Shown here: piece by piece, positions 5,762 to 46,762 of the stretch
Layout of the letters: each line of letters starts with the position of its first letter
Numbering within the stretch: position 1 is the stretch's first letter
The notes under the pieces: model-generated
Told to the model about the DNA's origin: nothing
The model's database searches: none
What the model saw: the letters and a program-made list of their open reading frames with translations, nothing else
DNA from: Candidatus Woesearchaeota archaeon
GTDB taxonomy: Archaea; Nanobdellota; Nanobdellia; SCGC-AAA011-G17; JACPIM01
Reading direction: 5' to 3'
Assembly: GCA_964432435.1 (NCBI GenBank)
Contig: CAYSNL010000002.1
Coordinates: 18,454-82,453, forward strand
Length of the DNA stretch: 64,000 bases
Position numbers and translations under genes: made by a program

Positions 5762-5798
5762 ATTATATCTGCCTTTAGTTATCTGCGTGTTTTTTAAT

Positions 5799-7023: not shown

Positions 7024-7024
7024 A

Positions 7025-28414: not shown

Positions 28415-29677
28415 ATGAATAGAGGTTTTTTTATATTGCTTGTTTTAATACTAAATATGAATTTAGTTTTTTCTAGTAAAAATATTCCAGATGAATGTAT
28501 TTTTGTAAGTTCAAGTGATAAAAACAATTTAAACTTGATAGATGGTCCTAAGGTAGTATTACAGAAATATATTAATTCACAAGGTAATGAGGAAATTTTA
28601 ATGTTTTTTTATGAAAAAGATAAAAGTCAAGGTGATATAGGTGCTTTAAGGTTAATTTTAAATTATAAAAAAAGTGAAGATGTATACAGTTTTTGGTCTA
28701 CTAATTTAAATGAATGCAAAGAGAATGAAAATGGATGTAGAGAATATTTTATTAAGAAAGATATACCTGAAATTTGTAGAAGATCTGGTCTTGAAATAAT
28801 CAGACCTATACCCTCTAAAGAAGGTATAGAAGAAAAACTTAAAGGAATAAATATAATTGATAATTGTGCTAATCTACCCAAGGAGCCTTCTTATTGTTCA
28901 GATAATATATTTATAAGAGGTATTGGAAAGTTTTATTATTTTTTAAAATCTATTTTTAATCCTGAATTAAAATCTTTAGACCTAAATGAATGTAAAAAAA
29001 TAAATATAGTAATAACTGGCCAAGGTTTTATAAATGAACAAGAGAAAGGAGAATTTACAGATTTAGCAAGAGAGGCAATTATTGAAGGTTTTTTTAAAAA
29101 CGATGTAATATCTTCAAATGCTTTTAGATTTAATTTTTATTTGTTAGATCCTTCAAATGATTTTAATTGTGCGACTAATTGTTTAGGTATTGATCGGGCT
29201 CTTTGCTGTGATAATACGAAGATTATTAATAAAGTTTCAGAATGCCCTAATGATTTTGTTTATGTTTTTGTTAATTCTAATAAAGATGCTGGGAGCAGTA
29301 CCGGGGTTATTTCAATGTCCACTTCATTTAATTTTGATCCTGGTGTTGTTGAGCATGAACTAATAGGGCATGGAGTTGGTGATTTAAGGGACGAGTATGT
29401 TGATGAATATTTTAGAACTATTGGTGAAAAACCTGAAAGAAATTGTTATGGAGATAAAAGTTGTAGGGCTTGGTGTAAATCTAGCGATGATTGTATTATT
29501 GGGACTGGTTGTTTTGAGGGTTGTGAATTATCTGAATGGTATAGGCCACATAGAACTAGTTTCATGAAGGTCTCTGGGAGAGAGATTGGTAGATATAATG
29601 AGATATTAATATGCGAAAGGATAAAAGAGTTTACTAATAAAGTTTCAGGATATTGTAATGAAATAGGTGTAGAATGA
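28415..29677 (+). CDS. secreted Cys-rich zinc metallopeptidase-like protein (HExxH; M64-like)
   Basis: Signal peptide; 'VEHELIGHGVGDLRDEY' HExxGH...DEY block; more than 20 Cys. Confidence 0.4.
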   Translation: MNRGFFILLVLILNMNLVFSSKNIPDECIFVSSSDKNNLNLIDGPKVVLQKYINSQGNEEILMFFYEKDKSQGDIGALRLILNYKKSEDVYSFWSTNLNECKENENGCREYFIKKDIPEICRRSGLEIIRPIPSKEGIEEKLKGINIIDNCANLPKEPSYCSDNIFIRGIGKFYYFLKSIFNPELKSLDLNECKKINIVITGQGFINEQEKGEFTDLAREAIIEGFFKNDVISSNAFRFNFYLLDPSNDFNCATNCLGIDRALCCDNTKIINKVSECPNDFVYVFVNSNKDAGSSTGVISMSTSFNFDPGVVEHELIGHGVGDLRDEYVDEYFRTIGEKPERNCYGDKSCRAWCKSSDDCIIGTGCFEGCELSEWYRPHRTSFMKVSGREIGRYNEILICERIKEFTNKVSGYCNEIGVE

Positions 29678-31951: not shown

Positions 31952-32617
31952 TTAAAGAATACATATACCTTCTTTCCCCTCTTTTTTGATTTTATACATA
32001 GCATGATCAGCTGTAGTTAATAAGGCATCTCTTATATCTTGAACATGATACCGATCTAATATTAAATCTCCAAAACCATTAACTTTACCTTTTTCTAGAG
32101 AACTTATTCCAGCACTAAAAGTAATTCCATTTACTTGATATTCTGGGAATATTATTCCAGTTGAACTTTTTTCATAAATTCTAGAAACAACGTGATTAGC
32201 TAATTTTTTACTAGCTTGTGGTAAGACTATAACAAATTCATCTCCACCAACTCTAGAAGCTTGATCATGTGGTCTTATTTGAGAAAGTAAACTTCTTGCA
32301 AATGCTTTCAAGATTTGGTCGCCTGCTTCGTGTTTATATGAATCATTTACTATTTTAAAATTATTAAGATCTAGGTAAGCAAGTGATAATGGTGGATGAT
32401 CTAGATTATGGTTTCTCATACTTCTTAGAATATTTTGAATTTCTTTTTCTAGGAATGTGTATAATCCTCTTCTATTTGGTATTTCGGTAAGAGGATCTAC
32501 AGTAGCCATTTCTCTATACATCATTAATTCGTGTCTAGTTACTTCAAGTTCATTTCTTAATCTAACTATTTCTCTTTCCAAGTTAGATTCCTGAGTTTCT
32601 TGTTGGTTGTTTGACAT
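31952..32617 (-). CDS. GGDEF-domain protein (diguanylate cyclase) with N-terminal coiled coil
   Basis: 'DPLTEIPNRRGL', 'LDLNNFKIVNDSYKHEAGDQIL', 'RVGGDEFVIVLP', 'SAGISS', 'ADHAMYKIKKEGKEG': all canonical GGDEF blocks, including an intact GGDEF. Confidence 0.8.
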   Translation of the reverse strand: MSNNQQETQESNLEREIVRLRNELEVTRHELMMYREMATVDPLTEIPNRRGLYTFLEKEIQNILRSMRNHNLDHPPLSLAYLDLNNFKIVNDSYKHEAGDQILKAFARSLLSQIRPHDQASRVGGDEFVIVLPQASKKLANHVVSRIYEKSSTGIIFPEYQVNGITFSAGISSLEKGKVNGFGDLILDRYHVQDIRDALLTTADHAMYKIKKEGKEGICIL

Positions 32618-32679: not shown

Positions 32680-33108
32680 TTATTTAACTATTAAATTTCC
32701 TTTCATTTCTTTATGTCCTGAACCACAAAATACATTACAGAAAAAAGTAAACTCTCCTGATTTATCAGCTATAAACTCTATAGTCTCAGTTTTACCGACA
32801 TCTACTTTCTGGCTTATTCCATATTCTGGAATAGCTATGCCGTGATTTACATCTGTACTTGTTAATTTAATCTTAACTTTATCTCCTTTGTTTACTGTTA
32901 TGGTTGATGGATCAAATTCAAATTTTTTTGCAGTCATATCTATTTCTACTGTTTTCCCAGTTAGTTGATAATTTGTATCGTCATTTCCTGTGTTTACTAC
33001 ATTAACTTGGGGTAAAGTTGTAGAAATTGTTTCTTGTTGTGTTTTAGACTGACATCCGGCCAAAATAAATAAGGCAAGTATTAAAAAAATTAATAAAATA
33101 TTTTTCAT
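32680..33108 (-). CDS. CuA-type cupredoxin lipoprotein
   Basis: Lipobox 'LAGC' after signal peptide; C-terminal 'FFCNVFCGSGHKEM' = C-x3-C-G-x2-H-x2-M CuA-type ligand set with upstream 'HG'; internal Met start (ORF-track start 33153). Confidence 0.6.
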   Translation of the reverse strand: MKNILLIFLILALFILAGCQSKTQQETISTTLPQVNVVNTGNDDTNYQLTGKTVEIDMTAKKFEFDPSTITVNKGDKVKIKLTSTDVNHGIAIPEYGISQKVDVGKTETIEFIADKSGEFTFFCNVFCGSGHKEMKGNLIVK

Positions 33109-33149: not shown

Positions 33150-33515
33150 TCAATCTCTAAATTTTGAGTCCAAACTTAATTTTTTATTTTCTGATAAAGA
33201 TAAAGATAAAAGAGCTGTAAAAATACCTAAATCCCTTACTGCAATATCATTATAACCCAAAGACATGATTATAGGAATCATGCTTATTGCTAGTAACAGA
33301 GAAGCCAATCTAGTAAATAAACCAATTATTAATAAAATTGCCATTAATACTTGAAAAATTGCCATTATAATTATTACTGTATTACCCGATATTGGAATAA
33401 GAGATGGTACTAAAGAAGACCAGATTTCCGGTTGTAGAATACTAGTTACACCAAACCACAGGAAAACTATTCCTAACCCTATTCTTAAAATTAATGTACT
33501 ATAGTCCTTAAGCAT
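33150..33515 (-). CDS. DoxX-family membrane protein
   Basis: 121 aa, 3-4 TM helices, 'RIGLGIVFLWFG' DoxX-like N-terminus; 4-nt overlap with the cupredoxin gene. Confidence 0.55.
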   Translation of the reverse strand: MLKDYSTLILRIGLGIVFLWFGVTSILQPEIWSSLVPSLIPISGNTVIIIMAIFQVLMAILLIIGLFTRLASLLLAISMIPIIMSLGYNDIAVRDLGIFTALLSLSLSENKKLSLDSKFRD

Positions 33516-33663: not shown

Positions 33664-34755
33664 TTAACCAAAAGTAAAAGCACTAAATTTAAATTCTTTT
33701 GATGAAGTTGTTAGTTTTAATGTGTAGGTCCCATATTTTGAATTAACCACGCTATATAGTCTTGCCTCTTTGATTAAAATAATTGCTTTGTTGTTTTTAA
33801 ACTGAACGTCAGATCCAGTCTGTTCTTTTGTTATTATATTACCGTCAATATAAACTTCTAATTCTATTGGTTTAATAGGTTTATCTGTTACTATATTAAC
33901 TGTTGATGCTGTGAATTTAAGAATTATAGATCCATTCTCGTCTTGATTTTCTAAGCTATCTGGATTGTTTTTCCACTTTCCATCCAAATAAAGCTTGTCT
34001 GGTTGAATGTCCTCTGGTGATTTGTAATCTACTATTTGGTCTGGTTTATATCCTTCTTTATTTCCTAAATTTTGTCCTCTTGGTGTTGCAAATTGATAAC
34101 CAGCATATGTTTCTGGTGTTATTCTGAACCTTATTGCTGTTTCTGGTTCTTTAGTCAAATTCATATTTGTTACATTCTCGCCTAATTCTTTTAATAGCTC
34201 TTGTATTTTCTTCTCTATTTCTTCATAATTACCTTCTCCAAAATGAAAATATTTTATATAACCATCTTTATCTATTAAATATTTAGCTGGCCAATATCTA
34301 TTTTCATAATTATTCCATGTAGAGTAATCATTATCCATTCCAACAGGATATTTTATTTTAAAATCTTTTACAGCCTGCTCAACGTTTTCTGTTTTCTTTT
34401 CAAAATCAAATTCAGGTGTATGAATCCCTATTATTTGCAATCCTTTTTTAGAATATTTTTCATCCCATTCTTTTAAATATGGCAAAGTTCTGATGCAGTT
34501 TATGCAAGTATAAGTCCAGAAGTCAACTAAAACCACTTTTTTCCCTTGAAATTCATTTATTGTTAGCGGATTTGAATTTATCCAGTGTTTAATTCCGATT
34601 ATCTCAGGTGCTTTGCCAGTTTCTGATTTTTCAGAAACGTTAATTATTTTACAACCTATACCTGGAATGCAAACTCCTCTTTCTACCATTATTATCACTC
34701 CTACTATTATGATTATAGTAAATATTAATAAAGTTCTTCTAATTCTGGTTTCCAT
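33664..34755 (-). CDS. membrane-anchored TlpA/AhpC-TSA-like thioredoxin-fold protein with extra C-terminal domain
   Basis: 'LVDFWTYTCINCIRTLPYL' Trx-like CxxC; ~150-aa C-terminal beta-rich extension. Confidence 0.65.
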   Translation of the reverse strand: METRIRRTLLIFTIIIIVGVIIMVERGVCIPGIGCKIINVSEKSETGKAPEIIGIKHWINSNPLTINEFQGKKVVLVDFWTYTCINCIRTLPYLKEWDEKYSKKGLQIIGIHTPEFDFEKKTENVEQAVKDFKIKYPVGMDNDYSTWNNYENRYWPAKYLIDKDGYIKYFHFGEGNYEEIEKKIQELLKELGENVTNMNLTKEPETAIRFRITPETYAGYQFATPRGQNLGNKEGYKPDQIVDYKSPEDIQPDKLYLDGKWKNNPDSLENQDENGSIILKFTASTVNIVTDKPIKPIELEVYIDGNIITKEQTGSDVQFKNNKAIILIKEARLYSVVNSKYGTYTLKLTTSSKEFKFSAFTFG

Positions 34756-35497
34756 TTTTTATTGTTATCGATGTCAAATAAACTAAAAATGCAGGTATTA
34801 ATGGTAATACACAAGGACTTAAAAACGAAATTAAGCCAGCCAAAAAAGCTATTCCTAGATTTATGGATGATCCTAAGTCTATGTAATTTAAATTAAATTT
34901 TAAAAGTAAATTTGCTACAAATGACAAATTTGCTATTTTAGCTAAATTGCTTGTGAAAACTAATATACCCATAGTAATTAATATAGTTCCAAAAATATAA
35001 TTTATGTATTTTAAATAAGGTAGCATTTTTTGAATAAATTTATTTGCCTGATTTGTGAATAATCCAACTAAAAGAAAAGGTATTCCTAATCCTAATGAAT
35101 AAGAAAACAATAATAAAAATGCCTTTGTTGGCTGTGTTATAGCTAATGTTAAAATTCCTCCTAAAATCGCACCTATGCAAGGAGTCCACCCAACTGCAAA
35201 AGCAGAGCCGAACAAAAATGATGCTACATATGAAGATCTAAATTTTCTTTTAATTTGAAATTTATGTTCTTTTTCTAGGAATGGTATTTTTAGTAAATTT
35301 AACAAATAAAGTCCAAAGATCATTATTATTATACCACCGACTCTGCTTAGCCATTTTAAAACTATTAAAGAAGAGTTTGAGAATATTGTTTGAAGTAAAA
35401 TACCGACTAATGAAAAAACTATGCTGAAACCAAGAACAAAGAAAAAACTATTAATAAAAATATTCCATTGATTTTTTGCCATATTTAACAACCACAC
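34739..35497 (-). CDS. ccdA: cytochrome c-type biogenesis/thiol-disulfide transporter CcdA (DsbD transmembrane core)
   Basis: Polytopic; conserved Cys in TM1 ('WTPCIGAILG') and TM4 ('FLSPCVLPLIP'); likely start at second Met (35482). Confidence 0.75.
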   Translation of the reverse strand: MWLLNMAKNQWNIFINSFFFVLGFSIVFSLVGILLQTIFSNSSLIVLKWLSRVGGIIIMIFGLYLLNLLKIPFLEKEHKFQIKRKFRSSYVASFLFGSAFAVGWTPCIGAILGGILTLAITQPTKAFLLLFSYSLGLGIPFLLVGLFTNQANKFIQKMLPYLKYINYIFGTILITMGILVFTSNLAKIANLSFVANLLLKFNLNYIDLGSSINLGIAFLAGLISFLSPCVLPLIPAFLVYLTSITIKNGNQN

Positions 35498-38563: not shown

Positions 38564-39913
38564 ATGAAAAAAAGAGGGCAGGTTACTGTTTTTGTTATTA
38601 TTGGTTTTTTAATTTTAATAATTATTGGTGTTATTTTTTTTATAATTAGTGCTAAAAACAAATTTTCTGAAAGTGAAATTACTGCTTCTAGCATAGATGA
38701 GGTTAGAAGGCAAGTTAATTTGGATGTTAAATTATGTTTTGAAAATATTGTTGAAAATGGAATATTAGATGGGGCTAGACATGGAGGTAATGCTGTTTTA
38801 ATGAATAAACTTGGTTCTGATTCTGTTCGTGAGAGTGGGTTGGATATTTGTAAAACCTTGTTAACGGCTACACAAGAAATAAGACTTGCTTTTGGGCCAA
38901 ATAGGAAATATACTCAAGATAGTGTGTGTGTTTTATATGATTCTAATAACATTGCAATAAATGAAGAACAGATTAATGATGATACAGTGCTTAACTTTGT
39001 TAGTGCTCCTCTTGACCTTAATAATTTTGAGAATTCTTTAAAGAATTATCTTAGCGATAGATTACCTAGGTGTCTTAATGAATTTAATCAATATAAAACT
39101 AAAGGCTGGGGTATTGGGACATTGAATGTAGAAAACATTGATGATGTTGGTGGTGTTGCTGAGCTATTAAAACAACGTAAAGATGAATATATCATTATTA
39201 ATCCAGGATTTGATACTTCTTGTCCGATGGAGGGGAAATTTGTTGCTTCTTTGAAAATGCCTTTAAAATTTTCAAGAGTAAGGTCTATTGGCAATGAAGA
39301 GTCTTTTGTACTTGATAATCAGGAATTCATATATAATGCAAATCTTAAATATTTTTATACAAAATCAGATGAGCTATTAAAAGATCTTCTTTCTATCGGG
39401 TTTGAACAAACAAAAATTTCTGAAATGCCGAATGCTGGCGTATGTAAAAACTGTTGGGATATAAAGGATGGGCTTGTCGAATTTGAAAGAAAGGTTGAAG
39501 ATCCATCTTCTGGTGGTTGTGATGGCTGTCATTTTTACAAAGCTACAGATCCTAATACTGGTGCGTATTTTTTTAATATTAAATGTGGCGAGTATTTTAT
39601 GAGTTTAAATAATCCAATAAATGTTAATGGTAAGGAAATTGTTTTAAAAGAAGCTAATGTAGACAATATTATAGTTAGTGTTGATGGTGTTTCTGGAGAA
39701 ACAATTAATAAAGATTCTACTGTTGATGTTGGTGGTATTGACTTTACTTTTGATAATTATGATCAAGATACTGGGAAGGTTACTCTAATAATTGGGGAGA
39801 GTTTAAGTTACTTATGGGGTTATTATTTTGGTTGTAGTTCAAATGTTGATATTTGTTTTATAGAATGTGATAATAATATGGGGCCTGCAACAATGCAGCC
39901 TAATGATTGTTAA
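38564..39913 (+). CDS. Cys-rich secreted/anchored protein
   Basis: N-terminal TM 'VTVFVIIGFLILIIIGVIFFII'; ~17 Cys including a C-terminal 'GCSSNVDICFIECDNN' cluster. Confidence 0.45.
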   Translation: MKKRGQVTVFVIIGFLILIIIGVIFFIISAKNKFSESEITASSIDEVRRQVNLDVKLCFENIVENGILDGARHGGNAVLMNKLGSDSVRESGLDICKTLLTATQEIRLAFGPNRKYTQDSVCVLYDSNNIAINEEQINDDTVLNFVSAPLDLNNFENSLKNYLSDRLPRCLNEFNQYKTKGWGIGTLNVENIDDVGGVAELLKQRKDEYIIINPGFDTSCPMEGKFVASLKMPLKFSRVRSIGNEESFVLDNQEFIYNANLKYFYTKSDELLKDLLSIGFEQTKISEMPNAGVCKNCWDIKDGLVEFERKVEDPSSGGCDGCHFYKATDPNTGAYFFNIKCGEYFMSLNNPINVNGKEIVLKEANVDNIIVSVDGVSGETINKDSTVDVGGIDFTFDNYDQDTGKVTLIIGESLSYLWGYYFGCSSNVDICFIECDNNMGPATMQPNDC

Positions 39914-39914
39914 T

Positions 39915-40445
39915 ATGAAAAAAATAATTTTAATTTTATTTTTTGTAATGATTTTTGTTAGTCTGGTGAGTGCTAGTGGATTGTATCCTGTTTCTATGGA
40001 AGACTTAGTTCATCCGGCTTGTAATAATAATGGCAGATGCGATTATTTTGAAAGTTCTCAAACTTGTCCTAATGAATGTAATGCAGAAACTTTTAATACA
40101 GATACTGTTAGCGGTGAGACTAGTACTACTACAATAATTAGTTCATCATATACAACTATTCCTGTTATAAATGAACAAATCAATGAACAAGTGGATGAAA
40201 TTAATGAACAATCTTCTGTGGTTAGTATTATAGCAAAACAACCAGTAAAAATACCTTGGACTTTAATTTTGGCTTTTGGGTTTACTATTGGAATTATTTT
40301 TTTGGTTGTAGTACTTTATTTGTGGATTAAGGGACAAACTAAAACATCAAAACAAAGTGAAAATAAAAAAAGAAAGGTTAGATCTAATAATGAAGAAGAT
40401 GAATTTGGATTACCATCTAGGCCTAAACGCGGGTTTGGTGTTTAA
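39915..40445 (+). CDS. secreted Cys- and Thr-rich protein with C-terminal TM anchor
   Basis: Signal 'MKKIILILFFVMIFVSLVSA'; 'CNNNGRCDYFESSQTCPNECN'; Thr-rich linker; TM 'ILAFGFTIGIIFLVVVLYLWI' + basic tail. Confidence 0.4.
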   Translation: MKKIILILFFVMIFVSLVSASGLYPVSMEDLVHPACNNNGRCDYFESSQTCPNECNAETFNTDTVSGETSTTTIISSSYTTIPVINEQINEQVDEINEQSSVVSIIAKQPVKIPWTLILAFGFTIGIIFLVVVLYLWIKGQTKTSKQSENKKRKVRSNNEEDEFGLPSRPKRGFGV

Positions 40446-40869
40446 GTTTATAGGTTAGTATTAAGTTTATTATTATTAAAACATCTAATACTAAACAACC
40501 CATACAAAACGCTTTTAAAATAAAAATTTCTATGAACAATAAATAGAAAGCAAAGAATAAAGAAAATATGGTTAGCAAATAAATGTAATTAATGGTATGT
40601 TTCTCTTTTTCTGGATTTTTATAAGCTATTCTTGATAAAACCAAGATTACTGTGAAAAAGAGTATTCCTAAAAAAGCTACTGGAATACCTATCTTTGGTG
40701 GAAATAATGAGTAAATGCTTTTATTAACCACATCACAAGAAAAAATCTCTCCTATGTCGCAGAATCGTTTTCCTGGTTTAGAATAGTGCAAATAAATTAA
40801 ATAAATTGACACTAATGTTGATAATACAGAAGTAATTGAGATATAATTCAATAGTTTTTTTTCTTTCAT
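40423..40869 (-). CDS. vitamin K epoxide reductase (VKOR) family membrane oxidoreductase
   Basis: Four TM helices; loop Cys pair 'CDIGEIFSCD' and TM4 'CMGC' CxxC, the arrangement characteristic of VKOR. Confidence 0.6.
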   Translation of the reverse strand: MKEKKLLNYISITSVLSTLVSIYLIYLHYSKPGKRFCDIGEIFSCDVVNKSIYSLFPPKIGIPVAFLGILFFTVILVLSRIAYKNPEKEKHTINYIYLLTIFSLFFAFYLLFIEIFILKAFCMGCLVLDVLIIINLILTYKLKHQTRV

Positions 40870-40915
40870 CTTGTTTTTAGAAAAATTTATATTTATAACT
40901 CTTTTGATATTAAGA

Positions 40916-41695
40916 ATGATTAATTTTAATATTGACCCGGTACTTTTAAGATTAGGACCTATTCAAATAAGATATTATGGGCTTGTTTATGTTATTGGAC
41001 TTTTACTTGGTTTGTACATATTAAATAAAGCAAGGAAAAAAGGTATTTTGGATTTAAAAGATGGTCAAGAATATGATCTAATATTTTATATAATGTTGGG
41101 TATGTTGATTGGTGCTAGGTTATTTCATGTTATCTTTTGGGGTTTAAATTATTATATTAGTAATCCTTTAAAAATATTTTATTTGTGGGAAGGAGGAATG
41201 AGTTTTCATGGGGGTCTAATTGGTATTCTAGTAAGCGGATATATTTACTGTGAAAAAAATAAGATAAATGTGGCAAAACTAGCAGATGTTTTAACTTTAC
41301 CTGCTGTTTTTATTTTAGCCTTAGGGAGGATTGTAAATTTTATTAATCAAGAAATATATGGAACAATAACGGCTTTGCCTTGGTGTGTAGAATTTAAAAG
41401 CATAGAAGGTTGTAGACATCCTGTGCAACTTTATGCAGCTTTAGGTAGATTTATAGCTTTTTTTATATTATTAAAATTTGGAAATAAACATAAAGAAGGC
41501 TTTGTTTTTTGGAATTTTGTTTTTCTTTTTGGTCTAGGTAGATTATTTTTAGATTTTTTAAGAGAGGATATAAGATATCTTGGGCTAAGCTTTGGACAGT
41601 GGTTTAGCTTAATTATGTTAATTTTAAGCGGTTATGTTCTATTTAGATTTTATATGGAGGATATTAAAAAAGTATTTTCTTTTAAGAAGAAATAA
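40916..41695 (+). CDS. lgt: prolipoprotein diacylglyceryl transferase homolog
   Basis: 'IDPVLLRLGPIQIRYYGLVYVIGLLLGLYI', 'GARLFHVIFWG', 'PLKIFYLWEGGMSFHGGLIG' match Lgt signature blocks; ATG 40916 (ORF-track TTG start 40871). Confidence 0.7.
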   Translation: MINFNIDPVLLRLGPIQIRYYGLVYVIGLLLGLYILNKARKKGILDLKDGQEYDLIFYIMLGMLIGARLFHVIFWGLNYYISNPLKIFYLWEGGMSFHGGLIGILVSGYIYCEKNKINVAKLADVLTLPAVFILALGRIVNFINQEIYGTITALPWCVEFKSIEGCRHPVQLYAALGRFIAFFILLKFGNKHKEGFVFWNFVFLFGLGRLFLDFLREDIRYLGLSFGQWFSLIMLILSGYVLFRFYMEDIKKVFSFKKK

Positions 41696-42259
41696 ACCAA
41701 AGACTATAATTATTATACTTAAAATAAATGAATTAAAAAATAATTTATACGCAAAGTCTTTAAAAAATTCATAAGGGAATAAATTAATTAAATTATCTTT
41801 TGAAGGGTCTAATAAATATAAATCATTATTAAAGAGCAGTTTATGAAAAGTGTTGTTGAAAAAGTCCTCAAAATTTATAAAATAAAAAGATAAAATTATG
41901 ATTATTGATGTTATACCTGAAATTATGAGTGATTTTCCCAGGGTTTTATAGTTTAAGATTATTAGGACTATTAATAATACTATGATTATATACAATAAGA
42001 TTAATGTTTTGTATATTAGGTTCTTAACATCTTTTAAATGAAACTTTTCCCTTTCATTAAAGAAATCTGTTGTTAAATCTTTATTATTTTGGAAATAGGA
42101 GAACAGATTCTTTGTGTTTGTTAGTGCTAATTCTTTCGGTATGGAAATATTTAGTTTATCAAATTCCTTCTGATAGAAACTTAGGTTATAAATTAAAAGC
42201 CTAAAATTAAATAAAAAAATGAATAATACTAATATGATTATTAAAAGTGTTTTTCTCAT
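41639..42259 (-). CDS. polytopic membrane protein, unknown function
   Basis: 206 aa, 4-5 hydrophobic segments. Confidence 0.3.
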   Translation of the reverse strand: MRKTLLIIILVLFIFLFNFRLLIYNLSFYQKEFDKLNISIPKELALTNTKNLFSYFQNNKDLTTDFFNEREKFHLKDVKNLIYKTLILLYIIIVLLIVLIILNYKTLGKSLIISGITSIIIILSFYFINFEDFFNNTFHKLLFNNDLYLLDPSKDNLINLFPYEFFKDFAYKLFFNSFILSIIIIVFGLFLLKRKYFFNILHIKSK

Positions 42260-42396
42260 GGGTGTTAGATTTGATATATTTTAGTAAAATTAACTATAGT
42301 AAGCTTTATATATTAAACTTTTATTGTTTTTTAGGGATTATTAATATTACGGCTAAAATATGGATAATAATCAAATAAAAGGGTAGAAAACGAAAC

Positions 42397-43365
42397 ATGG
42401 GAGAAAAAATGGAAAATAATAGTGTTAATGATAAAAAATCAAGTTTCTTGGGTAAAATCAAGTTTTGGCAAATTTCTAGTATTGTGCTATTAATATTATT
42501 TGTAGTGTCTATAATAGCTAATTTTTCAGGCAGAGGTTTATCTGGTGCTATTAGTAAAGATGATGCACAAGGAAAAATACAGCAATATGCTAATATTGTT
42601 ACAGGTGGGGCTATTGTTGATGTTGGTAGTATATCTGATGACGGGGAAAATGGGTTGTATAAAGTACCTCTTACTGTAAAAGGGCAAATTATGACTGGTT
42701 ATATAACGAAAGATGGGAAATTATTTTTTCCTGCAGCTGTTAATCTAGATGATTTTTTTAAACAGGTTGGAGACATAGAGGGTAAAACAACTGAACTACT
42801 TGATAATGAGCAAGTTCAAGTACCTAATGAACCTGTTAGGGTTAGTGTAGATGACGATCCTGTTTTAGGGGATAAAAATGCTCCTGTGATTATTCTAGAA
42901 TTTAGTGATTTCCAATGTCCTTATTGTGGTAGATTTGAGAGCCAAGCCTTTGATCAAATTAAGAAAGATTATATTGATACTGGCAAGGTTAAGTTTGTTT
43001 ATAGGGATTTTCCATTAAACAGCATACATCCTTATGCACAAAAAGCTGCTGAAGCTTCTGAATGTGCCGATGAACAAGGGAAATACTGGGAATATCACGA
43101 TAAATTGTTTGAAAATCAGCAGGCTTTGACTGTTGAAGATTTAAAGGAATACGCAAAAGAATTAAAACTGAGCATAGATAAGTTTAACGATTGTTTAGAC
43201 TCAGATGCTATGGTGGAAGAAGTTCAGAAAGATCTTAGTGAAGGTGAAAGCTATGGTGTTACTGGTACACCTGCTTTTTTTATTAACGGTCTTTTATTAG
43301 AGGGAGCTCAGCCATTTGAGAACTTCAAGAAAATCATTGACGAGGAATTAAGCAAAACAGCTTAA
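42397..43365 (+). CDS. membrane-anchored DsbA-like thiol:disulfide oxidoreductase
   Basis: N-terminal TM; 'FSDFQCPYCGRFE' CPYC active site, 'GVTGTPAFFING' cis-Pro loop. Confidence 0.65.
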   Translation: MGEKMENNSVNDKKSSFLGKIKFWQISSIVLLILFVVSIIANFSGRGLSGAISKDDAQGKIQQYANIVTGGAIVDVGSISDDGENGLYKVPLTVKGQIMTGYITKDGKLFFPAAVNLDDFFKQVGDIEGKTTELLDNEQVQVPNEPVRVSVDDDPVLGDKNAPVIILEFSDFQCPYCGRFESQAFDQIKKDYIDTGKVKFVYRDFPLNSIHPYAQKAAEASECADEQGKYWEYHDKLFENQQALTVEDLKEYAKELKLSIDKFNDCLDSDAMVEEVQKDLSEGESYGVTGTPAFFINGLLLEGAQPFENFKKIIDEELSKTA

Positions 43366-43382
43366 TTTTTTTATTTTTTAAA

Positions 43383-43646
43383 ATGGAAAACGGCTTAAGA
43401 AGAAATAATATAATCTATTTGGCCTGTTTGGCTTCTCAACTAGATAAATTAGCTGTTGAATTTGATAATACTACTTTAGTAGAACCCACGGCTAGGATGT
43501 TTTTAGATCTTTTTGGGAGATTATTCCAAAGTGAAAGTGGTGAATATTGGGGACAAAGGAGGGAACATCTTAAGTCTGATCTAAGTGAACTTAATAGGCG
43601 ATTGGGAGAAGTTGAATGCCAATATTCCTTTGGTAATTGGTACTAA
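43383..43646 (+). CDS. hypothetical protein
   Basis: 87 aa; no motif. Confidence 0.25.
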   Translation: MENGLRRNNIIYLACLASQLDKLAVEFDNTTLVEPTARMFLDLFGRLFQSESGEYWGQRREHLKSDLSELNRRLGEVECQYSFGNWY

Positions 43647-43649
43647 TGG

Positions 43650-44033
43650 GTGGAAATGAAAAAAAGTTTTTTGGTTATCTTAATCATTTTTGCTTTAGGC
43701 ATTTTTGGTTATTGGGGATTTACCTTTTATGTAGTTAAAGGTAATAGTGTTAGTCCTGCGTTTGTTGATTGTTTAGTTGATAACGGTGTTGTTATGTATG
43801 GTTCTGCTACATGTCCGTACTGTCAAACACAAAAAGAAATGTTTGGAAGAAGTGCAACAAAAGAATTATATAATAAAGATGGATATATTGAATGCCCTGA
43901 AAACCAGAAATTATGTGAATCTAAGGGTATAACAGGCTATCCGACATGGATTATCAATGGCACTAAATATGAAGGAGTTCAAAGCATAGAATTATTATCA
44001 AGTATAACTGGATGTGAATTATCTTATGAGTAG
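43650..44033 (+). CDS. membrane-anchored thioredoxin-like protein
   Basis: TM then 'YGSATCPYCQTQK' CxxC and 'GYPTWIING'. Confidence 0.55.
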   Translation: MEMKKSFLVILIIFALGIFGYWGFTFYVVKGNSVSPAFVDCLVDNGVVMYGSATCPYCQTQKEMFGRSATKELYNKDGYIECPENQKLCESKGITGYPTWIINGTKYEGVQSIELLSSITGCELSYE

Positions 44034-44136: not shown

Positions 44137-44793
44137 ATGTTTGAAGTTTTTAAGAAGAAATATTTATACTTTCCAGGATGTTTAACTAATTATGCTCTTC
44201 CTGAAATTGTTGAGAATTACAAAAAAATCTTTCTTAAACTAAAAATTCAGGTTTATAGCTTAGGCGCTTTAAACTGTTGTGGTGCAATAGCATACAATAA
44301 TGGATATAGCAAGGATTTTGAAGAAATAAGAGGTAGAAACATAGATGCGTTAAATCAGAATGGTGTAAAAAACATAGTAACTAATGATTCTGGCTGCTTA
44401 AAAGTCTTTAATGAATTGTATAGCATTAATGCTTTACATGTTTCTCAATTATTACTTAAAAACGTAAAAAAACTACCAGTAAAGTTTGACGAGAAAGTGA
44501 ATTATTATGATGGTATTCAACTAGGAATTTATGATGAACCTAGGAAAGTGTTAGGGGCTTTGGGCTTTGATGTTATTGAATTAAGAATGAACAAGCAAAA
44601 TTCTATACTTTGCGGTGCAGAAGGTGGTTTAATACAAAATTTGCCTTCTTTAGCAAATAAAATTAGTAAAGATGTTTTTGATTCGTGTACTGAAAAAAAA
44701 TTGATAGTGTCAGATCCTTTAATATATTACCATTTAAAGAATAATGCCCCTAAAAATATACAAGTTTTAGAGTTAAGTGAGGTAATCTTATGA
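44137..44793 (+). CDS. CCG-domain Cys-rich subunit (GlcF/HdrD/LutA-like C-terminal half)
   Basis: 'FPGC', 'LNCCGA' CCG-domain signatures. Confidence 0.55.
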   Translation: MFEVFKKKYLYFPGCLTNYALPEIVENYKKIFLKLKIQVYSLGALNCCGAIAYNNGYSKDFEEIRGRNIDALNQNGVKNIVTNDSGCLKVFNELYSINALHVSQLLLKNVKKLPVKFDEKVNYYDGIQLGIYDEPRKVLGALGFDVIELRMNKQNSILCGAEGGLIQNLPSLANKISKDVFDSCTEKKLIVSDPLIYYHLKNNAPKNIQVLELSEVIL

Positions 44794-45938
44794 GCATAGT
44801 TTGGTTTGAAAATTTAGTCGGAAAGGAAAATGTTTCTGATGAAATAGTTGATAGAGAAGTTTATGGTACTGATGCCAGTCAAATTAAAGGTAAATGCGAT
44901 AAGGTAATTTGGGCTACTGAAGTTAAACATTTGCATCAAATAGTTCTTTACGCAAAAAGAAATAAATTAAATATTGTTCCAAGAGGGGCAGGAACAAATC
45001 TAGTTGGGGCTACTGTTCCTGATAATTCTATAGTAATAGATTTTAGCAAGATGAATAATATTTTGGCCTTAACCAGCAATTATGTTGTTGTTGAGCCGGG
45101 TGTTGTATTAGATGATTTAAATATTGTTTTAAGAGATAAGTTTTTTCCAATACAACCAGAAGATAGTGCAACTTGCACTATAGGTGGCATGGTCGGGATT
45201 AATTCTACTGGTTTCTATGAAAAAAAATATGGAAGGATGAAAGACTGGGTTTTAGAGGTTGAAATGATTGATGGAAATGGTAGACTAAAAACATATGATA
45301 ACAAGGTTGTTGGAAAAGAAGGGATTTTGGGTTTAATAACTAAAGTAAAACTAAAGATTATAGATAGGGTAAATGACAGAAGTTTAAATGTTTTTAAATT
45401 TGAAAAACTAACAGATGTTTTTAATAAAGTTAGTGAACTAAAGAAGAATGAGGAAGTTAATGCTATTGAGTTTATTGATTCAATTGCTGCTAGGTTAATT
45501 GGTTTAGAGGATAAATATTATTTAATTATTGAATATATTGGTCTAGAGGGTTCAATAAGAGATTATAATGAGATTAACAGGTTATGGTATATAAGAAAAA
45601 AAGTTTTTCACAAATTAGCTTCAAATGGGTTTATTTATTTGGAAGATCCATTAATACCATATGAGAACTTAGCTGAGTTTTTGTTTTATTTAGAAGATAA
45701 AGGAATACCTTGTTACGGGCCTATAGGGGTAAACGTTTTATATCCTTGTTTTTTAAATAGAGAGGACATAAAAGATATGTACGATCTCGTTTTAAAATTA
45801 AGAGGGGTGGTAGGAGCTAGACAAGGTATTGGTCTTTTGAAAAAAAATTATTTAAATGAAGTTACCAAAGATGAATTAAAAAGTTTAAAGGAACAAATGG
45901 ATCCTTTATATATTATGAATAGGGGGAAGGTGATTTAA
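44790..45938 (+). CDS. FAD-binding oxidoreductase (PCMH-type FAD domain; GlcD/D-lactate dehydrogenase-like)
   Basis: 'IVPRGAGTNLVGATVP' FAD-binding motif; 382 aa (shorter than typical GlcD). Confidence 0.7.
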   Translation: MSIVWFENLVGKENVSDEIVDREVYGTDASQIKGKCDKVIWATEVKHLHQIVLYAKRNKLNIVPRGAGTNLVGATVPDNSIVIDFSKMNNILALTSNYVVVEPGVVLDDLNIVLRDKFFPIQPEDSATCTIGGMVGINSTGFYEKKYGRMKDWVLEVEMIDGNGRLKTYDNKVVGKEGILGLITKVKLKIIDRVNDRSLNVFKFEKLTDVFNKVSELKKNEEVNAIEFIDSIAARLIGLEDKYYLIIEYIGLEGSIRDYNEINRLWYIRKKVFHKLASNGFIYLEDPLIPYENLAEFLFYLEDKGIPCYGPIGVNVLYPCFLNREDIKDMYDLVLKLRGVVGARQGIGLLKKNYLNEVTKDELKSLKEQMDPLYIMNRGKVI

Positions 45939-45939
45939 G

Positions 45940-46419
45940 ATGGTGTATATAGGCGATGCAATAGCAGAAAAAATTGAATGTTTTTCAAGCCTTGATGTAA
46001 ATACATTTGAAAGTGAAATTCTTGGTGGTTTAGAATACTTAACTTCATTAGGAAAAAACGATGAAGTTGTTTTTCAAGTTGGTGGAAATAAACTTGTGGA
46101 TGAGTTATTGAATGGTGCTGATGCTATAGCTTATCTTTATCATAATAGAATGCCAATGGAGCATAATAGTAGAATTATTCCTATTGGGATATATGGTACG
46201 CCCCAAGCAAATGGGCTTTATGATGAAAGTCCAATAAGAGACGGAACTTATGAAGTGCTGAGTTTAGATGACATAAATAAATTAGATTATCCTTTGTTCT
46301 GTTTTGAAATTGATATCAAAATAGCCTATGCTAATGGGTTGAATTTGGCTTTATGGGTATCCAGAAAAAAACCAAAGGCAGTTGACCTAAATCAATTATT
46401 GCTCTTTGAGGTGATTTAA
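45940..46419 (+). CDS. hypothetical protein (possibly the detached C-terminal part of the FAD oxidase)
   Basis: Starts 2 nt after the previous stop; no motif. Confidence 0.3.
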   Translation: MVYIGDAIAEKIECFSSLDVNTFESEILGGLEYLTSLGKNDEVVFQVGGNKLVDELLNGADAIAYLYHNRMPMEHNSRIIPIGIYGTPQANGLYDESPIRDGTYEVLSLDDINKLDYPLFCFEIDIKIAYANGLNLALWVSRKKPKAVDLNQLLLFEVI

Positions 46420-46420
46420 A

Positions 46421-46762
46421 ATGCCAGGAGTAGATAAATGTATATTATGCGGTAAGTGTAGGGCAGACTCAGCTTTATTAAAAGCTACTGGTAAAGAAAT
46501 ATTAACTGCTAGGGGCAAGGCGTTGTTAATAATGAAAGGAATTCTAGATAAAGTTTTTTATATTGATCCTTTAAATGATGTTACTGTTAGGAGTTGTCCT
46601 ACTGATGTTGAAATTAGCGAAGAAGTTAGAAAACAAAGAGAAAGATTAGTGGAAAATGGGATGGAAACTAAAGCCAACAGAAGGATGATAGAGAATATAA
46701 GGGAATTTGGGAATCCATATGGTAATTTAGAGAAGAAAGACATAAAAGAGGTTTACAGTTAG
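46421..46762 (+). CDS. small Fe-S ferredoxin-like protein (GlcF/HdrD N-terminal-like)
   Basis: 'CILCGKCRADS' C-x2-C-x2-C and distal 'RSCPT'. Confidence 0.4.
   Translation: MPGVDKCILCGKCRADSALLKATGKEILTARGKALLIMKGILDKVFYIDPLNDVTVRSCPTDVEISEEVRKQRERLVENGMETKANRRMIENIREFGNPYGNLEKKDIKEVYS

Follow-up and report, generated by a model that had tools for sequence, protein, structure and literature searches.

Cyanobacterial VKOR carries a fused Trx domain, and MdbA is a broad-specificity oxidase in Actinobacteria, with CPYC being a relatively oxidising active-site motif. To our knowledge, DPANN archaea usually possess neither quinone-biosynthesis genes nor terminal oxidases or reductases, and recent papers describe archaea as being without the bacterial-style lipoprotein enzymes Lgt and Lit. 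Lit chemistry requires a free alpha-amino group, and canonical archaeal ether lipids offer no ester-linked sn-2 acyl chain. The latter chain is also required for Lit chemistry (PMC8275575). Here we describe a 64-kb stretch of archaeal DNA (the window) in which the 38564-44033 interval holds the core gene order VKOR-Lgt-Lit-DsbA-Trx, so that redox genes are interleaved with lipoprotein-maturation genes. Profile searches placed VKOR, DsbA, Lgt, the Lit family, CcdA and redoxin above curated cut-offs.

Results

The gene at 40423..40869 (minus strand, 148 aa) encodes, by its PF07884 match, a VKOR-family quinone-dependent thiol oxidase (E 1.5e-23, 83.8 bits, cut-off 27.5). Alignment with Synechococcus VKOR (PDB 4NV6/3KP9, E 2.5e-8) matched all four cysteines and the serine, giving a loop pair C37/C45, S51 and an active site C122-M-G-C125, with the cysteines falling on the structural-cysteine positions of 4NV6 and all four being invariant in the orthologs of two other genomes, L013 and L018. 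The VKOR with a loop Cys pair and a CMGC motif that the original prediction had read from the sequence therefore survived both profile and solved-structure searches. By manual counting on the sequence, with TM boundaries taken from the 4NV6/3KP9 alignment, the density of Lys and Arg in the N-tail, the TM2-3 loop and the C-tail is roughly double that in the loops bearing the cysteines, predicting that the cysteine side faces outside. Neither quinone-biosynthesis genes nor a terminal oxidase or reductase turned up in profile searches of the window, a point against the quinone acceptor proposed below.

Both CPYC proteins claimed to be membrane-anchored were recovered as such. The DsbA-like oxidoreductase of the MdbA/BdbD class (42397..43365, plus strand, 322 aa; gene callers place the start at 42409, giving 318 aa) matches Thioredoxin_4 (E 4.7e-40) and DSBA (E 2.5e-22), and has a single N-terminal TM segment (26-44) after a Lys-rich tail, C174-P-Y-C177 and a second conserved pair, C223/C266. 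Its best solved relatives are C. diphtheriae MdbA (4PWP, E 2.5e-26), B. subtilis BdbD (E 1.2e-23) and the M. tuberculosis DsbA-like protein 4K6X, while DsbG and DsbC models match it weakly. The Trx-like protein (43656..44033, alternative start 43650, plus strand, 125 aa) likewise has one N-terminal TM segment following a Lys-rich tail, and carries CPYC and two further conserved Cys pairs. It matches PDB 3KP8 (E 8.5e-16) and residues 190-278 of 3KP9, with conservation of the CxxC, the C80/C87 pair and the Y-P-(T)-W cis-Pro motif, and its gene abuts the DsbA gene in L013, L018 and L015. Thus, the homolog of a domain that is fused to VKOR in cyanobacteria is here free-standing and membrane-anchored. 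Given that it appears to be a split-off equivalent of that domain, we take it to be the dedicated partner of VKOR, likely its proximal electron carrier. Both catalytic domains are predicted to face outward, sharing the side of the membrane on which the VKOR cysteines lie.

Lgt (prolipoprotein diacylglyceryl transferase; 40916..41695, plus strand, 259 aa, alternative TTG start at 40871) is divergent from VKOR with a spacing of 46 nt. It matches PF01790 (E 3e-62), TIGR00544 (162.8 bits, cut-off 118.9) and E. coli Lgt 5AZB (E 8e-30), keeping Y26, H103-G-G-L, R143, N146, E151, G154, R239 and R246, with the changes Y235F and E243D. The best 120 homologs listed span 48-73% identity, and the 18 of them with a named organism are all assigned to Woesearchaeota, Nanoarchaeota or simply 'archaeon'. 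Relatives sit on contigs 100-209 kb long; Pfam identifies deoxyhypusine synthase and an RLI/ABCE1-type ABC protein on one, and another has thermosome and Kae1 genes read by eye. Judged from these sequences, archaeal Lgt is a large and diversified clade of at least 120 clusters, which is in conflict with publications stating that Lgt is missing from archaea.

The four-TM membrane protein of the Lit transacylase family (41639..42259, minus strand, 206 aa, no Cys) is encoded by a gene divergent from DsbA whose 3' end overlaps that of Lgt convergently by 57 nt. It was assigned by PF07314 (E 1.8e-26) and TIGR01906 (77.8 bits versus a cut-off of 74.8), and matches B. cereus Lit 7B0O (E 5e-11). Its H74, V78, H139, F143 and N145 correspond to B. 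cereus His85, Val89, His153, Phe157 and Asn159. None of these five varies among 17 homologs, D77 (Asp88) and K79 (Lys90) are conserved in at least 90%, and the catalytic His/His/Phe set is intact. However, it reached only 40.9 against the Lit equivalog NF051877 (cut-off 400), and a score so far below the cut-off counts against the lipid-remodelling role proposed below. No Lsp (signal peptidase II) gene turned up in the window or the other loci compared; combined with the lack of an ester-linked sn-2 acyl chain in ether lipids and with the single strict lipobox protein in 64 kb (below), this counts against a full lipoprotein branch.

The core genes lie on alternating strands and therefore do not form one operon. 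Nevertheless, L013 and L018 keep the core order with a protein identity of 67-75%, and VKOR-Lgt-Lit also stand together on a short contig (L020, 3 kb) that breaks off within DsbA, retaining only its start. This kept order indicates that the arrangement is more than chance. Toxin-antitoxin insertions in L013 and L018 occur at the core borders only. Of eight more distant loci, six have a TM-Trx gene immediately upstream of VKOR. One more distant archaeon (L015) has a Lit-DsbA-Trx operon among the archaeal ribosomal genes S24e and S27e with Spt4 and Rpb7, and another locus (L023) has CcdA and TlpA as neighbours of VKOR. In more distant Woesearchaeota, by contrast, no VKOR, Lit or DsbA gene adjoins Lgt, which speaks against a fixed link between the two branches. 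Downstream of Trx on the plus strand are a CCG-domain protein (44137-44793, CCG E 5.4e-17) and a GlcD-like FAD-linked oxidase (44790-45938, FAD_binding_4 E 7e-31), both also present in L013 and L018, with a toxin-antitoxin pair separating them from Trx in L018. The contig itself is archaeal, with an exosome/proteasome operon (proteasome alpha, SBDS, Rrp4, Rrp41, Rrp42) and HFX_2341_N, and a flat GC content of 26-31% across the window.

A second group of redox genes, all on the minus strand, was found 5-8 kb upstream of the core. It comprises a CcdA/DsbD-type transmembrane thiol-disulfide electron transporter (34739..35497; DsbD_TM PF02683 E 4.3e-15, 56 bits, cut-off 27.1; eight hydrophobic segments), a membrane-anchored TlpA/ResA-like redoxin with C84-I-N-C87 and a Thioredoxin_10 C-terminal domain (33664..34755; Redoxin E 6e-13, Thioredoxin_10 E 1.6e-25; ResA subfamily NF002854 E 1.2e-19, under its cut-off), which is likely the acceptor of CcdA electrons, and a cupredoxin (32680..33108). 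Between the last two lies a DoxX-family membrane protein (33150..33515, PF07681 E 2.2e-10). The cupredoxin (Cupredoxin_1 E 2.3e-13, COX2 E 3.6e-8) is a predicted lipoprotein with a signal peptide, the lipobox I-L-A-G-C19, which is the only strict lipobox match in the window, and a CuA-type motif C-x3-C-x3-H-x2-M, making it a candidate Lgt substrate and a candidate client of the TlpA-like reductase. L018 keeps the cupredoxin-DoxX pair, with the lipobox L-S-A-C in the cupredoxin ortholog. The original prediction had missed this whole group at 32.7-35.5 kb, as well as the Lgt and Lit-family genes between VKOR and DsbA.

Two Cys-rich secreted proteins had been noted next to the redox genes. Both do carry predicted export signals, contrary to a cytoplasmic location, although their cysteines number 14 and 4 rather than the approximately 17 and 8 first counted. 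The 449-aa protein (38564..39913, plus strand) has a class III (type IV pilin-like) N-terminus, 'MKKRGQ/VTVFVIIG', and three orthologs all keep nine of its 14 cysteines. Searching representatives exhaustively yielded one full-length relative and about 100 others matching only the first ~80 residues; Q6, T8, C58 and G75 do not vary in 16 members of the family, and C170 hardly does. Its AlphaFold model (mean pLDDT 61) shows a long N-terminal helix (3-72), and a fold search with the model gave no match. In the small 176-aa type I membrane protein (39915..40445, plus strand), a signal peptide precedes the 4-Cys module 'CNNNGxCDYFExSxxCPNEC', and a linker rich in Ser/Thr leads to a TM segment and then to a conserved tail (EFGLPSRPKRGFGV), with all four cysteines invariant in the L013 ortholog and no Pfam or NCBIfam family match. 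With 46-48% identity to their orthologs versus 67-75% for the enzymes, both proteins evolve much faster than the core by sequence comparison. They are candidate disulfide substrates, as is a secreted 420-aa protein (28415..29677, plus strand) which, as predicted, has a signal peptide and is Cys-rich (20 Cys), and which carries an HExxH motif 'HELIGHG' and has no Pfam family match. Other exported proteins with even Cys counts are encoded at 9031, 11110 and 54899. In this small sample from the window, with heuristic export predictions, even counts were found in 10 of 12 exported proteins (raw) versus 18 of 38 cytoplasmic ones (binomial p 0.019, Fisher p 0.029). Of the two odd exported cases, one has a lipobox Cys together with two CuA ligands and the other a Cys within a TM segment, which accounts for their parity. 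Such a bias argues for active disulfide formation.

Discussion

We consider it quite probable that the region is a conserved, general extracytoplasmic (envelope) protein-maturation island built of bacterial-type parts in a tiny, uncultivated archaeon of Woesearchaeota type (DPANN). With its lipoprotein-maturation genes and the reductive pair nearby, it extends beyond oxidative folding. Exported proteins would be oxidised outside the membrane by the anchored DsbA-like protein, the anchored Trx-like protein or both, with the DsbA-like protein proposed, by analogy with MdbA, to act as a broad-specificity oxidase. These carriers would be re-oxidised by the VKOR loop cysteines C37/C45, from which electrons could pass to C122xxC125 and then to a membrane quinone. 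Lgt would add a glyceryl lipid to a lipobox cysteine, such as that of the CuA-cupredoxin, and the Lit-family protein may then remodel the lipid anchor or have a related lipid-handling role. By contrast, CcdA and the TlpA-like redoxin could hold selected cysteines, for example the CuA ligands, reduced in the oxidising compartment. The clients would be exported proteins in general, including pilin-like surface proteins and proteases.

The original prediction had instead proposed that VKOR, DsbA and Trx form a pathway dedicated to the Cys-rich surface proteins at 38564-40445, as a substrate-plus-machinery island. The disulfide-forming pathway itself agrees with the redox genes and the even-Cys bias, and the two proteins, exported and with largely conserved cysteines, do adjoin the core in all three genomes in which the upstream flank is available (window, L013 and L018). 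However, they sit on separate transcription units with VKOR convergent to them, PIN-type toxin-antitoxin pairs intervene before VKOR in L013 and L018, L015 and the distant loci have redox genes without them, they evolve much faster than the enzymes, and the window encodes many further exported proteins with even Cys counts at scattered places, so that dedication to the neighbours is unlikely. A reading in which the DsbA-like and Trx-like proteins receive electrons from CcdA and serve mainly as reductases or isomerases, for example in the maturation of metal centres or pilins, with VKOR in a minor or different role (quinone or quinone-epoxide reduction), could draw on CcdA and the TlpA-like redoxin being 5 kb from the core, on the adjacency of such genes to VKOR in L023 and on the weak DsbG/DsbC matches. 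Given that the closest solved relatives of the DsbA-like protein are the oxidases MdbA and BdbD, that the Trx-like protein shares homology with the oxidising domain fused to VKOR and is genomically tied to VKOR, that CPYC is on the oxidising side, and that L018 has the VKOR core but no CcdA/TlpA pair at the corresponding place, we regard this reading as rather improbable.

That every part is of bacterial type, and that neither a quinone-synthesis nor an Lsp gene is in the window, raises the possibility of recently transferred genes without function, idle or decaying in an organism devoid of the needed quinone, Lsp and ester lipids. This is very improbable because the catalytic residues are all intact and conserved over a divergence of 45-75% identity, gene order is kept in several species, archaeal Lgt is diversified and exported proteins show the even-Cys bias. 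The mainly bacterial origin of the characterised relatives of all block genes could also reflect a bacterial block joined to an archaeal contig during assembly or binning, and Trx-VKOR pairs elsewhere do have bacterial-type neighbours (CdaA in L022, DNA pol III delta' and Dus in L026). Nevertheless, five sequencing runs gave the identical arrangement in independent assemblies, an archaeal HFX_2341_N/DHODH flank is present in relatives from NCBI, ENA and Hainich assemblies, and both the archaeal operon with flat GC in the window and the archaeal genes on the long contigs of the Lgt relatives argue against such an artefact, leaving it hardly credible.

Finally, the window differs from L013 and L018 between DsbA and Trx, where the gap is only 19-26 nt in those genomes versus an insertion of ~265 nt here. 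An 87-aa ORF in this insertion (43383..43646, plus strand), not predicted by gene callers and matching no family in profile searches, probably lies outside the system.

Gene content of the island and its archaeal setting

The original prediction placed a VKOR-family oxidoreductase, a DsbA-like protein and a Trx-like protein beside two cysteine-rich secreted proteins at 38564-44033. Profile searches and solved-structure alignments showed the three redox genes and their motifs to be real, and two further genes between VKOR and DsbA, encoding Lgt and a Lit-family protein, had been overlooked. In order, the interval encodes a 449-aa protein with the N-terminus MKKRGQVTVFVIIG (38564-39913, + strand), a 176-aa protein with a signal peptide and a C-terminal TM segment (39915-40445, +), VKOR (40423-40869, −), Lgt (40916-41695, +), the Lit-family protein (41639-42259, −), the DsbA-like protein (42397-43365, +), a doubtful 87-aa ORF (43383-43646, +) and a TM-anchored Trx-like protein (43656-44033, +). 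The first two proteins carry 14 and 4 cysteines, respectively, in place of the approximately 17 and 8 originally counted. The doubtful ORF lies within an insertion of approximately 265 nucleotides (43366-43655) between DsbA and Trx, where the related loci L013 and L018 have a gap of only 19-26 nucleotides, and our search revealed neither a homolog of this ORF nor clear terminal repeats or a mobile-element repeat signature.

Because tRNA and Rfam scans of the window gave no matches, taxonomy was taken from protein markers, by which the window is archaeal. These include a row of proteasome-alpha, SBDS, Rrp4, Rrp41 and Rrp42 genes at 58-61.7 kb, an HFX_2341_N-type protein at 36319 and archaeal pilin-type N-termini in window proteins, and close homologs of window proteins are labelled Candidatus Woesearchaeota or Nanoarchaeota archaeon. 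The GC content of the window is low (26-33%) without a compositional break at the island, and the same locus was assembled independently, in identical form, in five sequencing runs.

VKOR and a separate thioredoxin-like protein

The profile check confirmed the VKOR assignment, with PF07884 being matched over its whole length (positions 3-133 of 134) at 83.8 bits (cut-off 27.5; E 1.5e-23), and the NCBIfam VKOR equivalogs matched the protein only below their cut-offs. In an alignment with Synechococcus VKOR (4NV6), C37 and C45 correspond to the loop pair, S51 to the serine and C122xxC125 to the active-site CxxC. According to PMC4555120, which cites Goodstadt and Ponting, the VKOR hallmark consists of four conserved cysteines, two paired in a loop and two in a CXXC where TM4 begins, and a conserved Ser/Thr that follows the loop pair. 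All four cysteines are invariant in the L013 and L018 orthologs, with the serine changed to Gly in L018. Judged from hydropathy, Lys/Arg distribution and the solved-structure alignment, the protein would adopt an N-in/C-in topology with its cysteines outside.

Both halves of the Synechococcus sp. VKOR with a C-terminal Trx-like domain (3KP9, 3KP8, 4NV2/5/6) are homologous to window proteins. The four cysteines and the serine of the VKOR core are aligned, and the electron path is presumed to be as in Synechococcus, from the Trx CxxC to the VKOR loop cysteines, the VKOR CxxC and quinone. Plant LTO1, a VKOR with a fused Trx-like domain, is comparable to this fusion. By contrast, what is one fusion in Synechococcus is encoded here by two genes, which three other genes separate in this lineage and which stand as Trx followed by VKOR in distant relatives; in addition, a separate DsbA-like oxidase is present and the host is an archaeon. 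The crenarchaeal VKOR homologs (Pyrobaculum; Bevans et al. 2015, PMC4555120) likewise represent archaeal VKOR without a fused Trx domain, but differ from the present case in lineage, which is DPANN here, and in gene context.

The best solved relative of the 125-aa Trx-like protein is the Trx-like domain fused to Synechococcus VKOR (3KP8, E 8.5e-16), its Pfam Trx matches all being sub-threshold. Common to it and 3KP8 are the CxxC, a further Cys pair and the cis-Pro motif YPTW, and C53xxC56, C80/C87, Y95-P96 and W98 are invariant across six sequences. That the best solved relative is a VKOR-fused domain indicates that the archaeon possesses a split version of the cyanobacterial fusion. The archaeal protein has its own N-terminal TM anchor where the Synechococcus fusion has the TM5/linker helix, and one conserved Cys pair more than in the fusion (C39/C120) is found in the anchored versions. 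In both the Trx-like and the DsbA-like protein, a Lys-rich N-tail precedes the only TM segment, so their catalytic domains are predicted to lie outside.

The DsbA-like protein and a putative reductive counterpart

The DsbA-like protein matched PF13462 at 137.9 bits (cut-off 23.2) and PF01323 at 80.1 bits (cut-off 25.6). Its closest solved relative is C. diphtheriae MdbA (4PWP, E 2.5e-26), followed by BdbD (3EU3, E 1.2e-23), its active site is C174PYC177, and its 'VTGTPAFFING' segment aligns with the 'VSGTPAFVVG' loop of MdbA. By sequence, it is a member of the MdbA/BdbD/mycobacterial DsbA class. According to PMC6744442, VKOR is the oxidase partner of the MdbA/DsbA class in Actinobacteria, and the anchored, Thioredoxin_4-type DsbA found here is shared with that pathway (MdbA 4PWP; M. 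tuberculosis 4K6X/4IHU; Actinomyces oris). In both settings DsbA is paired with VKOR and not with DsbB, and pilin-type surface proteins are the probable clients; the archaeal system differs in its CPYC active site, in a second carrier (the Trx-like protein) and in a host without a known respiratory chain. From synteny and these nearest characterised relatives, the DsbA-like protein would serve as an oxidant re-oxidised by VKOR. It also has an extra N-terminal domain of approximately 100 aa compared with actinobacterial MdbA, for which no family match was found. A DsbC-like N-terminal dimerisation domain, suspected from a 'GLYKV...DGKLFF' segment, was rejected as no Pfam match appeared even at E 10.

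Between a cupredoxin gene and the reported interval lie three further genes, all on the − strand, encoding DoxX (33150-33515), a TM-anchored TlpA/ResA-like redoxin with a CINC motif and a Thioredoxin_10 domain (33664-34755), and CcdA (34739-35497). CcdA matched PF02683 at 56 bits (cut-off 27.1), and the redoxin, with its motif at C84-I-N-C87, matched Redoxin at 49.3 bits (cut-off 26.6) and Thioredoxin_10 at 90.8 bits (cut-off 27.1). If they work like bacterial CcdA-ResA/TlpA systems, CcdA and the TlpA-like protein would supply a counter-current of reducing power, and the pair may keep selected cysteines, such as CuA ligands, reduced in an oxidising extracytoplasmic space. Such a reductive branch indirectly supports active oxidation outside the membrane. 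B. subtilis combines the BdbCD oxidative pair with the CcdA-ResA/StoA reductive pair, and the present locus repeats this layout, with an anchored DsbA-like oxidase and a TlpA/ResA-type reductase fed by CcdA, both predicted to face outward from one membrane. However, the membrane oxidase is VKOR here and DsbB-like BdbC in B. subtilis, and the likely reductive client is a CuA cupredoxin here and cytochrome c there.

Conservation of the gene row and of the Trx-VKOR pair

Two related loci, L013 (NCBI GCA_016188045.1) and L018 (ENA), share the gene order of the island, with proteins of 447/477 aa and 173/185 aa followed by VKOR, Lgt, Lit, DsbA, Trx, CCG and FAD oxidase genes, and a 3-kb contig from Hainich groundwater (L020) covers the row from VKOR through Lgt and Lit into the start of DsbA. 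Identity to L013/L018 is 67-75% for the enzymes and only 46-48% for the two Cys-rich proteins. Toxin-antitoxin insertions, which the window lacks, occur in L013 (9880-10451) and L018 (5895-6467 and 9937-10751) only at the borders of the VKOR-to-Trx core, and are of the PIN plus 61-aa protein and the DUF3368 plus UPF0175 types. A distant archaeon (L015), its Lit 45% identical and its locus flanked by the genes for ribosomal proteins S10, S24e and S27e plus Spt4 and Rpb7, keeps Lit, DsbA and Trx in a co-directional row, spaced by 30 and 24 nucleotides. The Lit-family gene, which encodes a Cys-free protein, accompanies DsbA and Trx in both of these divergent archaeal lineages. Another protein-repair gene, for a methionine sulfoxide reductase (PMSR; 5695-6162), lies just upstream of this row in L015.

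The Trx gene is found, unfused, in the same conserved cluster as VKOR. Scanning metagenomes with the VKOR alignment gave eight distant loci (29-41% identity), six of which (L021, L022, L024, L026, L027 and L028) have the TM-anchored Trx gene directly upstream of VKOR, and one of which has VKOR beside CcdA and TlpA. The neighbours in L026 are clearly bacterial (DNA pol III delta' and Dus), and the L022 neighbour, CdaA, is mostly bacterial, which indicates that the split Trx-VKOR module is common to archaea and bacteria; the bacteria concerned are probably CPR. In CPR bacteria, a DsbA-like family adjacent to VKOR has been described (Meheust et al. 2019, PMC6744442). These bacteria are ultra-small, of reduced genome and probably episymbiotic, as the present organism presumably is too, and they share with it neighbouring genes for VKOR and a DsbA-like protein as well as surface proteins of the pilus type, although that report covers bacteria whereas the present host is a DPANN archaeon. 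Three of the related loci (L020, L023 and L025) come from Hainich groundwater, with record names containing '01um' or '02um' that possibly denote filter pore size, and hence a small-cell fraction.

Lgt, the Lit-family protein and a lipobox cupredoxin

The Lgt protein scored 162.8 bits against TIGR00544 (equivalog cut-off 118.9) and 210.5 bits against PF01790. Alignment with E. coli Lgt (5AZB) showed that Y26, H103GGL, R143, N146, E151, G154, R239 and R246 are kept, with Y235 replaced by Phe and E243 by Asp. We take Y26, H103, R143, N146, E151, G154 and R239 to be the essential residues of the E. coli enzyme, using numbering from the 5AZB alignment and the Lgt literature. The reaction that defines Lgt is the transfer of diacylglyceryl from phosphatidylglycerol. 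Judged by profile and residues, the archaeal protein is a bona fide PF01790/TIGR00544 Lgt. Among the 120 best homologs listed (48-73% identity), the 18 with an organism name are all archaeal, and several relatives are located on archaeal contigs of 100-209 kb. In other Woesearchaeota, Lgt occurs in unrelated archaeal contexts, and the tight clustering is therefore a feature of one sub-lineage; a search of genome contigs for Lgt found a single archaeal relative, in which Lgt stands outside any such cluster. This archaeal clade is against the statements that archaea had so far yielded no homolog of either Lgt or Lsp (PMC12462473) and that Lgt is 'absent from archaea', the latter based on RefSeq genomes (PMC13251419). 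The NCBI pipeline already names these proteins, so the fact is present in databases and apparently absent from the literature, in which our search found no paper linking Woesearchaeota with Lgt.

The Lit-family protein matched PF07314 at 93.7 bits (cut-off 24) and TIGR01906 at 77.8 bits (cut-off 74.8), and aligned with B. cereus Lit (7B0O) at E 5e-11. Because it scored only 40.9 bits against the strict Lit equivalog NF051877 (cut-off 400), far under the threshold, we call it 'Lit family' and not Lit. Its H74, H139 and F143, invariant in 17 homologs, correspond to His85, His153 and Phe157 of B. cereus Lit, of which the two histidines form the catalytic dyad and the phenylalanine is invariant (PMC8275575). 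Lit acts on lipoproteins already cleaved by Lsp, and its chemistry depends on an sn-2 acyl chain in ester linkage and on a free alpha-amino group (PMC8275575). Canonical archaeal lipids are ethers (PMC12462473).

Only one strict lipobox protein was found in the window (32680-33108, −; ...FILAGC-QSK, with ILSAC in the L018 ortholog). This protein, a cupredoxin, carries the CuA-type motif C-x3-C-x3-H-x2-M (FFCNVFCGSGHKEM). Its gene adjoins the DoxX gene at 33150-33515, and the cupredoxin-DoxX pair is conserved in L018 (381-1224); no cytochrome oxidase was seen in the window. Tblastn with an E. coli LspA sequence and motif scans found no Lsp in the 64-kb window or in the related loci analysed, which is weak evidence given this limited stretch of DNA. 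The bacterial Lgt/Lsp/Lit pathway (E. coli Lgt 5AZB; B. cereus Lit 7B0O, PMC8275575) is matched here in the essential residues of Lgt, in the His/His/Phe active site of Lit and in a lipobox substrate encoded nearby. In contrast to that pathway, ether lipids are expected in the host membrane, and ester transacylation by Lit cannot work on these; moreover, the Lit homolog is tied genomically to DsbA and Trx, not to Lgt alone. Haloferax volcanii AliA/AliB also concern the lipidation of archaeal lipobox cysteines, and DPANN archaea are predicted to hold many lipoproteins (PMC12462473). However, AliA/AliB are non-homologs of Lgt (HHpred probability 29%; PMC12462473), whereas the window protein is Lgt by PF01790/TIGR00544. 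For the adjacency of VKOR and Lgt, a giant-virus module in which VKOR serves lipid modification (PMC13486548) was considered as an analogy and rejected because its gamma-carboxylase-like epoxidase and desaturase partners are absent here.

Cysteine-rich exported proteins and cysteine parity

Cysteine parity was analysed in the window's 70 ORFs. With a crude, simple hydropathy classifier and a small sample, even cysteine counts were found in 10 of 12 exported or anchored Cys-containing proteins and in 18 of 38 cytoplasmic ones (one-sided binomial p 0.019; Fisher p 0.029). One odd case, the cupredoxin, has one lipobox Cys and two CuA ligands, and the other, a 623-aa protein, has its third Cys within the C-terminal TM segment; after post hoc correction for these two, the remaining 11 of 11 are even. 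This direction is the one that Dutton-type analyses predict for organisms in which exported proteins are oxidised.

The N-terminus of the 449-aa protein (KRGQ/hydrophobic) is of the class III, type IV pilin-like kind, and the similarity of approximately 100 otherwise unrelated proteins is confined to its first ~80 residues; among representatives, an exhaustive search gave a single full-length relative. Nine of its cysteines are invariant in three orthologs, with C58 invariant and C170 nearly so in the wider family. Its AlphaFold model is poor (pLDDT 61), and comparing this model with PDB structures by Foldseek yielded nothing meaningful, the best hit having E 0.014 and TM scores staying below 0.15. 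In the 176-aa protein, a module of four invariant cysteines is followed by a linker rich in Ser and Thr, a TM segment and a cytoplasmic tail that is conserved. The further Cys-rich secreted protein predicted at 28415-29677 (+) was also recovered, being 420 aa in length with 20 cysteines, and its HExxH motif (HELIGHG) suggests a zinc metalloprotease outside the Pfam families. Neither Pfam nor NCBIfam gave a match for any of these three proteins. Exported subtilases are also encoded at 54899-57421 (+) and 9031-10179 (+), the larger with 14 cysteines, some of them in a C-terminal Cys-rich module (CGDN...C...C), together with a run of Gly residues and a TM anchor at the C-terminus.

Discussion

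The observed part of the pathway consists of the homology of its components, their catalytic residues and their synteny. Electrons would flow from the cysteines of exported proteins to the CPYC of the DsbA-like and/or Trx-like protein, then to C37/C45 and C122/C125 of VKOR and presumably to quinone, with the DsbA-like protein being oxidised by VKOR either directly or via the Trx-like protein. Lgt would lipidate lipobox cysteines, and the Lit-family protein may act on the resulting lipid anchor. The proposal of a disulfide-forming pathway is well supported by these data. Its claimed dedication to the neighbouring Cys-rich proteins is not supported: the 449-aa and 176-aa proteins are plausible disulfide substrates, no specific tie between them and the redox genes was seen, and the island is broader than a pathway for two clients. 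We consider a general extracytoplasmic protein-maturation island to be the quite probable reading.

A bolder extension of the maturation-island reading would be that DPANN archaea of the Woesearchaeota type run a bacterial lipoprotein pathway, with Lgt and a catalytically intact Lit-family transacylase, on ester-linked diacylglycerol lipids, wired to a quinone-dependent VKOR/Trx/DsbA system. We regard this as unlikely. If true, their membranes would hold bacterial-type phospholipids scavenged from or shared with bacterial partners, with quinone likewise scavenged, the view that 'Lgt is absent from archaea' would be overturned, and the lipid divide would be breached in a major lineage of archaea. 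The presence of a bona fide Lgt and a Lit-family enzyme on archaeal contigs, within a large archaeal Lgt clade, does reopen the question of the lipids of these archaea, as the chemistry of Lit depends on an ester bond.

Bacteria have well-known VKOR-DsbA pathways, and VKOR homologs are known in Crenarchaeota (PMC4555120). The enzymes are thus familiar, and what is new is the split VKOR/Trx arrangement and its unreported interleaving with Lgt and a Lit-family gene, in archaea to which Lgt has been denied. Our literature search found no published description of such a thiol-redox system in DPANN archaea, in which host attachment depends on surface proteins and pili; the system encoded here looks complete, with oxidative VKOR/Trx/DsbA and reductive CcdA/TlpA branches. 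Moreover, the Trx domain that cyanobacterial and plant VKOR carry as a fusion is also found as an independent protein with its own membrane anchor, encoded together with VKOR in a conserved two-gene module, which offers a natural 'split' system for studies of VKOR-partner recognition. The acceptor of VKOR electrons poses a bioenergetic question in an organism expected to be without a quinone pool and a respiratory chain, and neither a quinone-synthesis gene nor a terminal oxidoreductase was found within the 64-kb window.

Several other features of the window deserve mention. Downstream of the core, a row encoding a CCG protein, a GlcD-like FAD oxidase, a 159-aa protein and a 113-aa Cys-motif protein (44137-46762, +) is kept in L013 and L018; it resembles a lactate/glycolate-oxidase-like module, and any tie to a VKOR electron sink is pure speculation. 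A gene with an archaeal pilin-type N-terminus and a weak Pilin_N match (6520-7023, +) is followed by one for an unannotated 172-aa five-TM protein without a family match (6986-7504, +). A GGDEF diguanylate cyclase domain protein (31952-32617, −; PF00990, E 1.6e-31) is encoded on this archaeal contig, and to our knowledge c-di-GMP signalling genes have rarely been reported in archaea. Finally, a single ORF at 50250-51722 (−) combines MtrA-like, thymidylate-synthase and pterin-binding DUF4346 domains.
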